From Prochlorococcus sp. AG-679-M23 (lineage in GTDB: Bacteria > Cyanobacteriota > Cyanobacteriia > PCC-6307 > Cyanobiaceae): DNA of 64,000 nucleotides. Shown piece by piece: positions 21,533-41,824 of this stretch. A model generated the notes under the pieces. That model saw only the letters and a list, made by a program, of their open reading frames with translations. It did no database searches and was not told the DNA's origin. The stretch lies in assembly GCA_003208875.1 (NCBI GenBank), contig QCUR01000001.1, positions 320,001-384,000 on the forward strand, read 5' to 3'. The position numbers were made by a program, and so were the translations under genes. Each line of letters starts with the position of its first letter. The stretch's first letter is position 1.

Positions 21533-21660
21533 TTCCTGGGTCTTATACTTAGGATCTCTAGATACTTTTTTAATATTAAAAGTATGGCTTTAAAATCTAC
21601 TTGAATAACATAGAACAAACAAAGCATTAGAATTCTCGTATAAATCGATAAAAAAGTAAA

Positions 21661-22010
21661 TCAGCATATTTACCGATTTACTTGAAATAGAGATAGGAGT
21701 AATTTATGAATGTTGAGTTAGGAGGCAATCTAAATGATTGATAGTCCGCCTGAAATTTAGCAAATTTACTAATATAGGAAGTGTATTCCTGACAATGGGA
21801 TTAATCGAAAAATAAAGTTCAATCAATTAGTCTGATAAGACTTCGCTTTATAATTACCAGCGACAAAAAAGAACTAAATTTATCGAGAAGTATCCCCTAA
21901 TCCAACTATTTAAAGCTCATGAATAAATGAACTTTATAATATGTTTTAAAAATCCTGAAAGTAGGAAATAAGAAATTTAAAAGAGGCCTGTTATAACTGG
22001 CCTCTTTTTT
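21661..22010 (+). ncRNA. Putative ~300-nt transcription unit with micro-ORF MIDSPPEI (21734-21760)
   Basis: Operator-like site, -10 TAATTT, GGAGG, micro-ORF and terminator 21979-22010; homologous unit at 40186-40386. Confidence 0.6.
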
Positions 22011-22085: not shown

Positions 22086-23036
22086 ATGAAAGAGAAAAAT
22101 TTATTCCCCTCCATCGAGCCAAGAGAAAAGGGTTTTTTACAGGTAAGTAAAATTCATTCTATCTATTGGGAAAGATCTGGAAATCCAAAAGGTAAAAAGA
22201 TATTAGTAATTCATGGTGGTCCTGGAGGAGGAAGTCAGCCAAGATATAGGCGATATTTTAATCCTGAAAAATTTGATATTGTTCAATTTGATCAAAGAGG
22301 CTGCGGTTCTTCAAGACCTTTTTCAGAATTAAGAGAAAATACAACAGGCGACCTAGTAGATGATATTGAAAAATTAAGAGTAAATTTGAAAATAGATTCT
22401 TGGCATTTGTTTGGGGGTTCATGGGGCTCTACTCTGGCTTTAATTTATTCAATTAAAAATCCATCAAGAGTCTTAAGTATGACCTTAAGAGGAATATTTT
22501 TATGTAGAAAATTTGAACTCTTATGGTTTTATCAATATGGCGCAAGTGAGATATTCCCTGAAGAGTTTGAAAAATATATTGCAGTAATTCCTAAGGATGA
22601 AAGGGTTGATTTGATAGCTTCTTTTTATAAATATCTTACCTCCCCAGATATTGAACTTAGATCAAAAGCAGCTACTGCATGGACAAATTGGGAACTTTCT
22701 ACAAGCCATCTTATAAAAAGAGATATTGATGTTGGTAAAAGTAAAACTAATTCCTTTTCGGATGCTTTTGCTAGAATAGAATGTCATTATTTTATAAATA
22801 AGATCTTCTTAGAAGAAAATTTTATTTTGAAAAATATAAATATTATAGAATCCATACCAACTAAAATAATTCAAGGCAGATATGACGTAGTTTGTCCTGT
22901 AAGGAGTGCTTGGGACCTTAGTAGAAAATTAATAAATTCAGAGTTAATTATCGTAGATGAAGCTGGTCATTCAATGAGCGAAAAAGGCATCACATTAAAA
23001 TTATTAGATTCAGTTCAAAGATTAGAAAGTTTTTAG
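22086..23036 (+). CDS. pip: Proline iminopeptidase
   Basis: HGGPGGG, FDQRGCG, GGSWGS, QGRYD, AGH. Confidence 0.96.
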   Translation: MKEKNLFPSIEPREKGFLQVSKIHSIYWERSGNPKGKKILVIHGGPGGGSQPRYRRYFNPEKFDIVQFDQRGCGSSRPFSELRENTTGDLVDDIEKLRVNLKIDSWHLFGGSWGSTLALIYSIKNPSRVLSMTLRGIFLCRKFELLWFYQYGASEIFPEEFEKYIAVIPKDERVDLIASFYKYLTSPDIELRSKAATAWTNWELSTSHLIKRDIDVGKSKTNSFSDAFARIECHYFINKIFLEENFILKNINIIESIPTKIIQGRYDVVCPVRSAWDLSRKLINSELIIVDEAGHSMSEKGITLKLLDSVQRLESF

Positions 23037-31597: not shown

Positions 31598-31666
31598 TAT
31601 CAGAAACTCCTCACACACTAATTTCTGATAATCAAGCACCCTTATCTCTAAATTAGGGTGTTTTTT
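31598..31666 (+). ncRNA. Yfr1/Yfr10-like sRNA
   Basis: ACTCCTCACAC motif (31606-31616) in the loop of a TATCAGAAA/TTTCTGATA stem, then a CACCCT..AGGGTG-T6 terminator. Confidence 0.75.
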
Positions 31667-31765
31667 ATTGACAGAAAAACAGAAAGTCATAACTGGCACA
31701 TGTGACAATTAGATTGCTTTTCTCATCCCCTTCCAGTTTAGGAGAGTGTATGGCATATTAAAAAG

Positions 31766-31857
31766 GTGTGTAGGAGTGGTTTTACTAAAAAAGTGGAAAC
31801 AAGGAAACACTTAATTTAGTTAAACCAAGAAAAGACCTCTATTAGGGGTCTTTTTTT
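31766..31857 (+). ncRNA. Yfr2-family (Cyano-1) sRNA
   Basis: 5' GTGTGTAGGAG, central GGAAACA-A-GGAAACA loop, GACC..GGTC-T7 terminator. Confidence 0.88.
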
Positions 31858-35374: not shown

Positions 35375-35437
35375 GCTCAAGTCCCCGTCCTTTGGCTTGA
35401 GTCGTACTGCGGTCTATCTAGTGGTAGATCGGACGAT
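35375..35437 (-). promoter_or_regulatory. Glutamine-II riboswitch (Downstream-peptide motif)
   Basis: Minus strand CGTCC...CGCAGTACGACTCAAGCCAAAGGACGGGGACTTGAGC with P1 CGTCC/GGACG and pseudoknot CTCAAG/CTTGAG. Confidence 0.82.
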
Positions 35438-35440
35438 TTG

Positions 35441-37148: not shown

Positions 37149-37237
<89 letters not shown>

Positions 37238-40185: not shown

Positions 40186-40386
40186 TCGGTATTAATACCG
40201 ATATACAGAAAATATTATTCGTAGTAATTTCTAGTTAATTAAATGGAGGGATCAGAAATGATTGATAGTCCACCAGAGAATTTAATTAGATTGGTTTAAA
40301 CAGCCAAATCCTACTAAATAAAAATAAGCTAAGTATTCCTATAGGAGGTTGTTTTCATTTAAAGGCTGAGTTCAACCTCTTTTTTT
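40186..40386 (+). ncRNA. Putative ~150-nt transcription unit with micro-ORF MIDSPPENLIRLV (40258-40299)
   Basis: Perfect palindrome TCGGTATTAATACCGA, -10 TAATTT, GGAGG, GAGGTTG..CAACCTC-T7 terminator; homolog at 21661. Confidence 0.6.
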
Positions 40387-40723: not shown

Positions 40724-41275
40724 GTGAAACGCTTATTGCTCGCATCGCTTTTATTAGGTTTTATTTCTCCAGTAATGGCTAAAGAAATTTGTACCCTTAC
40801 AAGTGAAGTAGAACCAGATGTAACTATAACTTTGCAAAACTCTGGTTCTTCTTATGGTGTAGGGACTCTTAATTATAAAAACAAACCTTCATTAGGTTTC
40901 GATGTAGGTATCTGGAATGGATATGGAGGTCAGTATTACACTGCAAGATCATATTCACCTGAATTATTAAAAGAAGAAAAAACCTTTCAAGAAAGAACAA
41001 AAAATACAAAAGAGATTAGAACAGGACATTTTATGAATTTTGTGGGAAATCAATTAGGAAGAGCAACTAAAATAATGGATAGAAAATCTGGAAAATTAAG
41101 AGCATTAATGCCTTCACTTTCACAAGGTTATTATTATTCGATTCCTTTTACAGAAGAGGGACAATATGGGAGACAGAAATTATCAAAAGAGATGAAAACT
41201 ATTATTGACGCTACAGAGGGATTTTTTGTTGATTCAGGAGGATGCAGAAAATTCTTTCCTTATGGATGGGATTAG
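40724..41275 (+). CDS. Secreted hypothetical protein
   Basis: MKRLLL signal peptide; 183 aa. Confidence 0.75.
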   Translation: MKRLLLASLLLGFISPVMAKEICTLTSEVEPDVTITLQNSGSSYGVGTLNYKNKPSLGFDVGIWNGYGGQYYTARSYSPELLKEEKTFQERTKNTKEIRTGHFMNFVGNQLGRATKIMDRKSGKLRALMPSLSQGYYYSIPFTEEGQYGRQKLSKEMKTIIDATEGFFVDSGGCRKFFPYGWD

Positions 41276-41520
41276 ATGAGAGGATATTTTTCATTCTCCG
41301 CACTTCTATGCAGTAGAAGAGGACCATTTATATAGTCATTGATCGCCTCTCCAAGGGTGATGGGGATATCTAGGAAAACCTTTTTTGTTCTCTCTTCAAC
41401 CGCATTCTCCCAGGATTGGGCCAGATCCCTGGAAAGAAATGTTCTGGATCTCGGACCGACATAATTCTTCCTTCTTATTAGGACCTGCCAGCCGCTGCCG
41501 CTTCTTCTGATTGTTGCCAT
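41272..41520 (-). pseudogene. N-terminal fragment of a tyrosine recombinase/phage integrase
   Basis: MATIRRSGSGWQVLIRRK...SRTF...AQSW...TLGEAINDY; no catalytic domain; GC-richer; next to the tRNA 3' end. Confidence 0.78.
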
Positions 41521-41660
41521 TTCGGTGTCATCGTATGTGTGATGCACCTCCAGATATCTACCTTTAAAACAGAAAAGTAGACCCGCAATCGGACGTCCAC
41601 TTCTGATGAATTCTTTTTAGCGATAGTGATAATCTCTTTGATACCAAGTTATCCAACGAG

Positions 41661-41742
<82 letters not shown>

Positions 41743-41749
<7 letters not shown>

Positions 41750-41824
41750 GGTTGGATTTGAACCAACGTAGGCAGAGCCAGCGGATTTACAGTCCGCCCC
41801 CTTTAACCACTCGGGCACCGACCC
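41743..41824 (-). tRNA. tRNA-Tyr(GTA)
   Basis: GGGTCGGTGCCCGAGTGG...GACTGTAAATC...GGTTCAAATCC...CGGCCCA, long variable arm. Confidence 0.97.

Follow-up and report, generated by a model that had tools for sequence, protein, structure and literature searches.

A family of picocyanobacterial sRNAs has differing RNA bodies and one portable 5′ cassette, and two of its members, Yfr8 and Yfr11, lie in the window analysed here, a stretch of 64,000 nucleotides from Prochlorococcus sp. AG-679-M23 (contig QCUR01000001.1). The best explanation of the whole, to which a probability of about one half is given, is an sRNA family in which the cassette combines an operator, a Shine-Dalgarno sequence (SD) and a mini-ORF, and in which the ORF would be translated and act in cis. 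Prochlorococcus has very few regulatory proteins and depends heavily on sRNAs.

The elements of locus 1 were confirmed by direct reading of the window and have the layout described earlier; the coordinates for both loci are collected in Table 1. A sequence-only reading of this DNA had claimed a twin layout consisting of a 16-mer, 23 nt, TAATTT, GGAGG placed 8 nt before an ATG, a tiny ORF and a terminator, and this layout was recovered at both loci. The accompanying statement that no other gene lies inside did not hold at locus 1, where the antisense RNA Yfr9 overlaps on the minus strand. Across codons 1–7 the two ORFs differ at CCG/CCA, CCT/CCA and GAA/GAG, and alignment bore out the claim that all three differences are synonymous third-position changes and that the flanks have diverged. 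Scanning with the 21-nt ORF pattern (at most 3 mismatches) gave 2 matches in the window against 0.01 expected, and none of 100 shuffles reached 2 or more. By folding, Yfr8 has an energy of -71.7 kcal/mol (z -4.87), and the final codons and stop of the Yfr11 mini-ORF fall inside a small predicted hairpin.

Table 1. Features of the Yfr8 and Yfr11 loci, in window coordinates.
Feature	Position	Strand	Basis and remarks
16-bp operator-like site TCAGCATATTTACCGA	21661-21676	+	direct reading; -51 to -36 from Yfr8 start
Inverted repeat AAATCAG-N8-CCGATTT with 16-mer TCAGCATATTTACCGA as core	21658-21679	+	locus 1
Spacer, 23 nt	21677-21699	+	locus 1, between 16-mer and TAATTT
-10-like hexamer TAATTT	21700-21705	+	direct reading; putative promoter role
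Yfr8 sRNA, ~299 nt, start to intrinsic terminator	21712-22010	+	RF02360 match end at 21712
Shine-Dalgarno GGAGG, 8 nt ahead of ATG	21721-21725	+	direct reading, locus 1
Mini-ORF MIDSPPEI*, subfamily A	21734-21760	+	direct reading; pattern match
Predicted Yfr8 5′-terminal hairpin; AGGAGG (SD) pairs with Pro-Pro codons CCGCCU	21712-21761	+	folding
Predicted intrinsic terminator of Yfr8, last hairpin and U-run	~21979-22010	+	folding
Yfr9, antisense partner of Yfr8	21647-21938	-	RF02360 match 21712-21938 and PMC2518516 Table 1; 3′ end approximate, set by offsets given in PMC2518516
16-bp perfect palindrome TCGGTATTAATACCGA	40186-40201	+	-51 to -36 from Yfr11 start
-10-like hexamer TAATTT, 23 nt past 16-mer	40225-40230	+	direct reading, locus 2
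Yfr11 sRNA, 150 nt	40237-40386	+	RF02363 match
Shine-Dalgarno GGAGG, 8 nt ahead of ATG	40245-40249	+	direct reading, locus 2
Mini-ORF MIDSPPENLIRLV*, subfamily D	40258-40299	+	direct reading; pattern match
Predicted intrinsic terminator of Yfr11	~40343-40386	+	folding

Locus 1 is yfr8 (with antisense yfr9) and locus 2 is yfr11. The Rfam search matched locus 2 to RF02363 (Yfr11) at 138.5 bits (gathering threshold 44), over the full length of the model (1–144 of 144), and locus 1 to RF02360 (Yfr8/9) on the minus strand at 223.4 bits against a gathering threshold of 40. The RF02360 model is oriented as Yfr9, and by the coordinates in PMC2518516 the ORF-bearing plus-strand RNA is Yfr8. In the sister genome G034, three ORF matches sit 21–22 nt inside the listed 5′ ends of Yfr8, Yfr11 and Yfr16 (for Yfr8, the ATG lies 22 nt inside the 5′ end in Steglich 2008 Table 1), and the mini-ORF strand of locus 1 was therefore assigned to Yfr8. 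The overlap with a described Yfr sRNA suspected in the sequence-only reading thus applies to both loci (Rfam, Steglich 2008), and the starts predicted there, 21712 and 40237, are the exact ends of the Rfam matches.

According to PMC2518516 (Steglich 2008), where lengths in MED4 were taken from Northern blots and verified by 5′RACE, these are discrete RNAs of 149–290 nt; Yfr8 and Yfr9 form a 290-nt antisense pair, while Yfr11 shares 74% identity with Yfr16 and both are co-regulated with Yfr19, all three dropping after a dark-to-light shift and increasing with DCMU. The MED4 pairs Yfr8/Yfr9 and Yfr11/Yfr16 are the same genes as the window loci, with full-length matches, agreeing 5′ ends and a location in the genomic-island region. 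In the main text of PMC2518516, homologues of Yfr11/16 are given only for MIT9515 and Yfr8 is not linked to Yfr11/16, whereas here the 5′ cassette connects them. Relative to the known Rfam families, the cassette also ties in two further types, described below as B and C.

The ORF pattern (at most 1 mismatch) was found in 269 of the 285 genomes of the genus and in 91 of the 92 whose completeness is 90% or more, and a reversed-pattern control gave 0 matches. The family of micro-peptide/sRNA units claimed from two copies in the window therefore exists and reaches far beyond them, and the promoter element is common to its members. A loose version of the pattern, run over genome contigs, returned mostly chance matches in unrelated bacteria, and only the Prochlorococcus rows were kept. 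Most genomes of the genus carry three syntenic copies. Subfamily A is Yfr8 (MIDSPPEI*), subfamily B reads MIDSPPEELNYKI* and scores 36.6 bits to Yfr11 (L015), under the Rfam threshold, subfamily C (MIDSLPEISE*) has no Rfam match, and subfamily D is Yfr11/16. The genome studied here holds five intact copies (Yfr8, Yfr11, two Yfr11-type and one type C) and one decayed copy without ATG or SD; the two extra Yfr11-type copies read MIDSPPEKFIKLV and MIDSPPEKFIRLV, with L003 and L004 scoring 89.9 and 89.3 bits to RF02363, and the type C copy reads MIDSLPAISE*. Five other small-genome genera carry MIDTPPE forms (MIDTPPEYQIEAN or MIDTPPEH). The consensus of the head is M-x-[DE]-[ST]-P-P-[EG] in an ORF of 8–14 codons. 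Types A, B and D carry consecutive Pro codons, as do the forms from low-light and Synechococcus-like genomes, but type C has Leu-Pro in their place and is nonetheless maintained in most high-light genomes. Among 65 aligned 5′ regions of the family, GGAGG is invariant (65/65). The leader of the cassette measures 21–22 nt, with the SD located 10–14 nt from the RNA 5′ end.

The upstream element of the cassette reads TCRG-N8-CYGA (wider form AAATCRG-N8-CYGATTT) and lies at about -51 to -36, with the -10 box 23 nt later. A copy of the element, equally spaced, lies ahead of Yfr19 (RF02366, 83.5 bits) in this genome, and another precedes a 50-aa ORF for which no NCBIfam family, and no Pfam family over the cut-off, was found. 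Scanned strictly for the palindrome (13 or more of 14 positions), the genome has only four sites, namely those of Yfr8, Yfr19, the 50-aa gene and one more; a looser scan (at least 12 of 14) gave 98 strand-hits against ~55 in a partly filtered shuffle, a chance level, and was left unused. When metagenome loci were collected by the operator alone, 99 were usable, comprising 26 of type A, 22 of type B, 45 with the 50-aa gene and 6 others, one of which (L161) is a Yfr8-like RNA with the ORF region deleted.

In NtcA-type class II promoters of cyanobacteria, GTA-N8-TAC lies ~22 nt upstream of the -10 box. The present promoters resemble these in that a 4-8-4 palindrome replaces the -35 box, here 23 nt before the -10 box, and differ in their half-sites, which are TCRG/CYGA rather than TGTA/TACA, and in a centre that lies ~2 nt farther upstream. 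An NtcA site was rejected, as the sites read TCAG-N8-CCGA and TCGG-N8-CCGA and not GTA-N8-TAC. A CRP-family search of the genome gave one clear protein and one HTH match below the cut-off, and no candidate for a second regulator. A single regulator most likely binds the 16-bp inverted repeat. Since PMC2518516 reports one response for Yfr19, Yfr11 and Yfr16, the element is probably the cis-element behind their joint response to light and DCMU; the co-regulation proposed in the sequence-only reading gains from the presence of the shared element ahead of Yfr19 as well, an RNA published as co-regulated with Yfr11 and Yfr16.

An older RNA, absent from Rfam, bears this ORF both in Synechococcus-like genomes of 57–70% GC and in low-light Prochlorococcus. 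Type C and the low-light forms, which were first found by the ORF-based pattern and later recovered independently via an RNA motif, have common downstream blocks (CTGCTCCAA, GCATCGTT-N1-2-AGGTGCCC and GCCCCAG). The motif GCATCGTT-N1-2-AGGTGCCC occurs in 94 of 301 genomes of the taxonomic family, spanning 19 of 36 genera and reaching 70% GC; outside the taxonomic family, 3 matches in 270 genomes, all without the other blocks, fit chance. An SD and mini-ORF were present 95–132 nt upstream of the motif in 31/31 loci examined in the taxonomic family (including L330), and the mini-ORFs found through the motif include MEDTPPGQMSGVC, MEETPPGQISGVR, MDDTPPEQLKR*, MDDTPPENS* and MTAETPPEQALEAR*. The start codon of the ancestral type is ATG, 5–9 nt from GGAGG, nearly throughout, with TTG and GTG each found in 1 of 23 sequences.

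Tests for coding were carried out on samples picked without the ORF, one anchored on the operator and one on the downstream RNA motif. In the operator-anchored sample, ATG and frame were retained in 26/26 type A and 22/22 type B loci, and the leaders and tails of the two types are largely unalignable. In 23 distinct sequences of the ancestral RNA, minor-allele counts over codons 3–6 were 10, 14, 6 and 10 at third positions, 1, 0, 0 and 0 at first positions and 0, 2, 2 and 0 at second positions. Between the consensus heads of A and B there are 4 differences, each a synonymous third-position change (P = 15/3060 = 0.005), and the probability that the third positions are exactly the 4 most variable of the 12 sites in the 23 sequences is 1/495, both values being too strong because related genomes are not independent. 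The restriction of variation in codons 3–6 to third positions at motif-found loci points to translation, and the head of the mini-ORF is likely translated and selected as coding. On these substitution patterns, the head appears to be under purifying selection at the codon level, with a tail that is free in sequence and length. The codon-level conservation that the sequence-only reading had proposed to check is seen as third-position periodicity at the ORF-blind loci. Counting against a strict peptide reading, replacements at codon 4 of type A are common among metagenome variants (S to N, K, D or V); codon 5 of the same type shows the singletons R, S and L. A literature search for Prochlorococcus ribosome profiling, proteomic or reporter data on translation found none.

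The stretch from two residues before Pro-Pro to one after it sets EF-P dependence, and the conserved residues of the mini-ORF cover exactly this stretch. As a mechanism, the strong SD would recruit ribosomes to translate the mini-ORF, which would work mainly in cis, the peptide probably being a by-product. A ribosome on, or pausing in, the first ~40 nt, at Pro-Pro-Glu, would open the hairpin formed by the SD and the Pro codons and shield the 5′ end. How long the sRNA lasts, or how actively it pairs, would in that case follow the translation state of the cell in a dark/low-energy regulon. Action in cis is favoured over a free peptide, tentatively and at slightly less than even confidence, because the residues flanking Pro-Pro are conserved, the tails are free, the SD lies near the 5′ end, and Yfr8 and Yfr16 are long-lived. 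Known 5′ stabilisers include the ermC leader when it holds a stalled ribosome and, in Bacillus, SD-like elements; these need no conserved coding head. The present RNAs are alike in having a strong SD ~10–14 nt from the 5′ end of a long-lived RNA (Yfr8, Yfr16), and unlike in that the organism is different, the coding head is conserved and Yfr11 is not long-lived. Table 2 of PMC2897979 gives decay values of >20 min (Yfr16), 19.7 min (Yfr8) and 4.8 min (Yfr11), with an ncRNA median of 3.3 min, and places Yfr16 and Yfr8 among the longest-lived non-housekeeping RNAs. The modest stability of Yfr11 counts against a 5′-stabiliser reading.

Since type C, with Leu-Pro, is retained in most high-light genomes, stalling at Pro-Pro cannot be essential in every member. 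The ribosome-sink and stalling-sensor roles suggested in the sequence-only reading are likewise putative. A more far-reaching form of the mechanism is speculative and rather unlikely. In it the mini-ORF would be an ancient, portable, cis-acting ‘translation-sensing cap’ whose EF-P- or energy-dependent Pro-Pro pause, inside the first 40 nt, would gate 5′-end stability and activity across a dark/low-energy sRNA regulon of the most abundant phototrophs in the ocean, under one TCRG-N8-CYGA-binding regulator.

A codon-level signature would equally be left by dual-function sRNAs whose 8–14 residue peptide acts in trans, with MxD(S/T)PPE as a partner-binding epitope and the RNA body base-pairing separately. 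Such RNAs are an established kind (RNAIII and SgrS are treated in PMC2518516), conservation of the head extends over genomes of 40% to 70% GC, and type C keeps MIDS-L-PE without Pro-Pro, a better fit to an epitope than to a stall motif; we nevertheless consider a trans-acting peptide unlikely, as members of just 8 residues would need to be functional peptides, the tails are free in length and sequence and are frameshifted in the type B loci L212 and L222, residue 4 is variable, and no signal sequence or partner is evident. Compared with SgrS/SgrT, RNAIII/delta-hemolysin and SR1/SR1P, the units share the form of a stand-alone, terminator-ended sRNA with a short conserved ORF behind an SD; they differ in an ORF of 8–14 codons rather than 26–43, in conservation of the first 7 codons only, in the occurrence of one ORF head on several unrelated RNA bodies, and in that translation and base pairing are here putative. 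The accessible papers on these RNAs report no base-pairing targets. An untranslated RNA element, in which GGAGG and CCNCC would make up a seed or a GC-rich 5′ hairpin and the frame would be incidental, ranks somewhat lower still. In the main text of PMC2518516 the authors saw these RNAs as without peptide-coding potential and discussed only a 44-aa frame in Yfr9. Because GG.GG and CC.CC are complementary in every member, an untranslated hairpin could conserve both the SD and the Pro codons; nt 1–50 of Yfr8 are predicted to form a hairpin beginning at +1, in which the Pro-Pro codons pair with the SD, and the variable positions of type A, at codons 4 and 5, fall in its predicted internal loop. 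RNAalifold gave the same 4 G-C pairs in 23/23 ancestral-type sequences, but since these pairs never vary they provide no covariation support and test nothing, and across 65 family 5′ regions RNAalifold found no consensus structure. Nor is the Yfr8 hairpin kept family-wide (67.2% of cells pair versus 66.0% shuffled), and an RNA-level account does not explain the strict 3-nt periodicity over GA.AC.CC.CC. in the ORF-blind sample. ATG at 5–9 nt from GGAGG is retained in nearly all members.

Leader peptides with Pro codons that sense proline or EF-P are exemplified by MgtP/MgtL in Salmonella. MgtP/MgtL and CadC share with the mini-ORF a short 5′-proximal ORF, consecutive Pro codons and conserved residues around Pro-Pro, and differ in that the transcription unit here includes no gene further downstream, type C is without Pro-Pro and stalling is putative. 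A corresponding attenuator, sensing proline or EF-P for a downstream gene, was considered for Yfr8, where a 313–316 aa ORF, on its sequence a putative proline iminopeptidase gene, lies 352 nt on; a same-strand ORF was present at +352 to +355 from the type A ATG in 4/4 loci checked (L001, L006, L029 and the window, at 22086-23036). This is very improbable, as the ORF stops ~225 nt from the Yfr8 terminator, the divergent type A loci L030 and L032 are without that gene, and unrelated genes flank types B, C and D as well as the low-light and Synechococcus-like forms. Each unit is closed by a strong terminator, and its product builds up as a separate RNA species of 149–290 nt (PMC2518516). With a terminator intervening and the neighbours differing, no linked gene in the same transcription unit was found.

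Least probable of all is that the head is a relic of the 5′ end of a small-protein gene, perhaps phage-derived, kept only through recent truncation. Six viral contigs encode proteins of 71–87 aa (one cut at the contig end) that start MIDSPPE[FY]Q behind an SD and resemble the low-light form MIDTPPEYQI. For this 33-bit pattern, however, ~10 chance matches were estimated in a collection of that size and 10 stretches were seen, and the one long viral contig examined, L285, carries genes that read from sequence as WhiB-like and primase-type. The viral protein had no match in 50,697 phage records or, at E ≤0.001, in the 301 genomes of the taxonomic family; PHROGs gave 0 families, and Pfam gave only DUF1059, at E 0.056 and below the cut-off. 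The viral proteins are probably a chance N-terminal match, and a cassette conserved in several genera does not fit a recent truncation. For a type I toxin–antitoxin system, as proposed for Yfr8/Yfr9 in PMC2518516, no conserved intact Yfr9 toxin ORF was found among 56 type A loci; the same 35-codon stop-to-stop frame, without a Met codon, is present in 22/56, and the others have 26–68 codons.

Returning to the cassette with a cis-acting ORF, Yfr8, Yfr9, Yfr11, Yfr16 and Yfr19 are already known, and the cassette, its age and two of the subfamilies appear to be unreported. The sequence-only reading had held that a full match to a described Yfr family with this peptide already reported would remove the novelty: both loci fully match described families, and the peptide was not found reported. 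In the openly readable literature, where the Yfr names occur in only three relevant papers, neither the mini-ORF nor the shared operator nor a link between Yfr8 and Yfr11 was found, and the strings MIDSPPE, MIDTPPE and MIDSLPE are absent from the searchable literature, a scope outside which subscription texts and closed supplements fall. The main text of PMC2518516 is without the terms Shine, ‘ribosome binding’ and palindrom, and the accessible portions of PMC7368042 and PMC6778093 do not mention the mini-ORF cassette. If the cassette is real, it would define a regulon and an operator with which a dark/redox regulator could be fished out, reclassify several ‘non-coding’ RNAs as bearers of a translated mini-ORF, tie the Yfr RNAs to an older, highly conserved RNA of marine and freshwater Synechococcus-like cells, and offer a testable example of one coding module reused across sRNA bodies. 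ORFs of 8–14 codons would be detectable through comparative genomics alone. The rarity of strong SDs, also claimed from the sequence, is reflected in the genome, where only 24 of 133 GGAGG-N6-9-ATG sites open an ORF of at least 50 aa.

The best copy of the Yfr8/Yfr11-type inverted-repeat operator in the source organism's own genome (G000) precedes a 50-aa ORF, which was also found downstream of the operator in 45 of the 99 usable metagenome loci of the operator-anchored sample. This ORF returned no family in an NCBIfam search and none above the cut-off in Pfam; it may correspond to the AtpTheta homologue that is reported to be dark-induced in MED4. Yfr19 carries the same operator as Yfr8 and Yfr11, at equal distance, but lacks the mini-ORF. 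A further palindrome site, AAATCAGAGCTATTGCTAATTT, matched the operator at 13 of 14 positions. Coordinates of all these features are collected in the table.

Features of the source genome and of the window
Feature	Location	Strand	Remark
Locus of the 50-aa ORF	G000, contig C6, 20116-20341, outside the window		begins MRSIMNWLSKMLESMAN; downstream of inverted-repeat operator
Yfr19 (L289)	G000, contig C3, 134914-135046	minus	RF02366, 83.5 bits
Operator-palindrome site	G000, contig C4, 105071-105092		
Decayed D-type copy (L291)	G000, contig C1, 218663	minus	box still recognisable
Unnamed, strongly conserved RNA	G000, contig C3, 23915-24330		further loci L296-L326, L330
316-aa ORF	window 22086-23036	plus	starts 352 nt past the Yfr8 ATG, same strand
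Other RNA genes of the island-like stretch with Yfr11	window 31599-31831; 35376-35438 (-); 37149-37220 (-); 41661-41824 (-)		
91-aa ORF	window 41272-41547	minus	adjoins tRNA genes

The decayed copy of type D (the Yfr11/16 subfamily) retains an ORF-head remnant, TTGATACTCCACCAGG, without SD or ATG, and gave no match in an Rfam search. On metagenome contig L161, a natural variant in which the leader and mini-ORF are deleted, the operator runs straight into the 3′ portion of a Yfr8-like RNA.

The unnamed, strongly conserved RNA of the table, the RNA body common to type C and low-light forms, gave no match against Rfam and is present in 94 of 301 family genomes spanning 25-70% GC, with copy number reaching 2-4 in some of them. 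Its invariant blocks are CTGCTCCAA, GCATCGTT-N-AGGTGCCC and GCCCCAG, and the closing helix shows a few compensatory changes.

Proteins of 71-87 aa starting MIDSPPE[FY]Q are encoded on viral contigs (L269-L275, L284-L288), and show a CNCG...H...H pattern with a weak DUF1059 match (E 0.056). These phage-like contigs also carry genes putatively encoding a WhiB-like protein and a primase, as read from sequence, and the MIDSPPE[FY]Q match is probably unrelated to the sRNA cassette.

Within the window, the predicted product of the 316-aa ORF downstream of Yfr8 resembles a proline iminopeptidase; its linkage to Yfr8-type loci is retained in L006 and L029 and absent in L030 and L032. In the window, Yfr11 (40237-40386) and the ORFs flanking it are encoded on the plus strand; in the sister Prochlorococcus genome (G034, contig C1, 358606-358754) and in the published table they occupy almost the same position on the minus strand, which points to either a difference between assemblies or a local inversion. 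The other RNA genes of the island-like stretch comprise Yfr10, a Cyano-1 (Yfr2-type) RNA, a glutamine-II riboswitch and three tRNA genes, two of which have identical scores.
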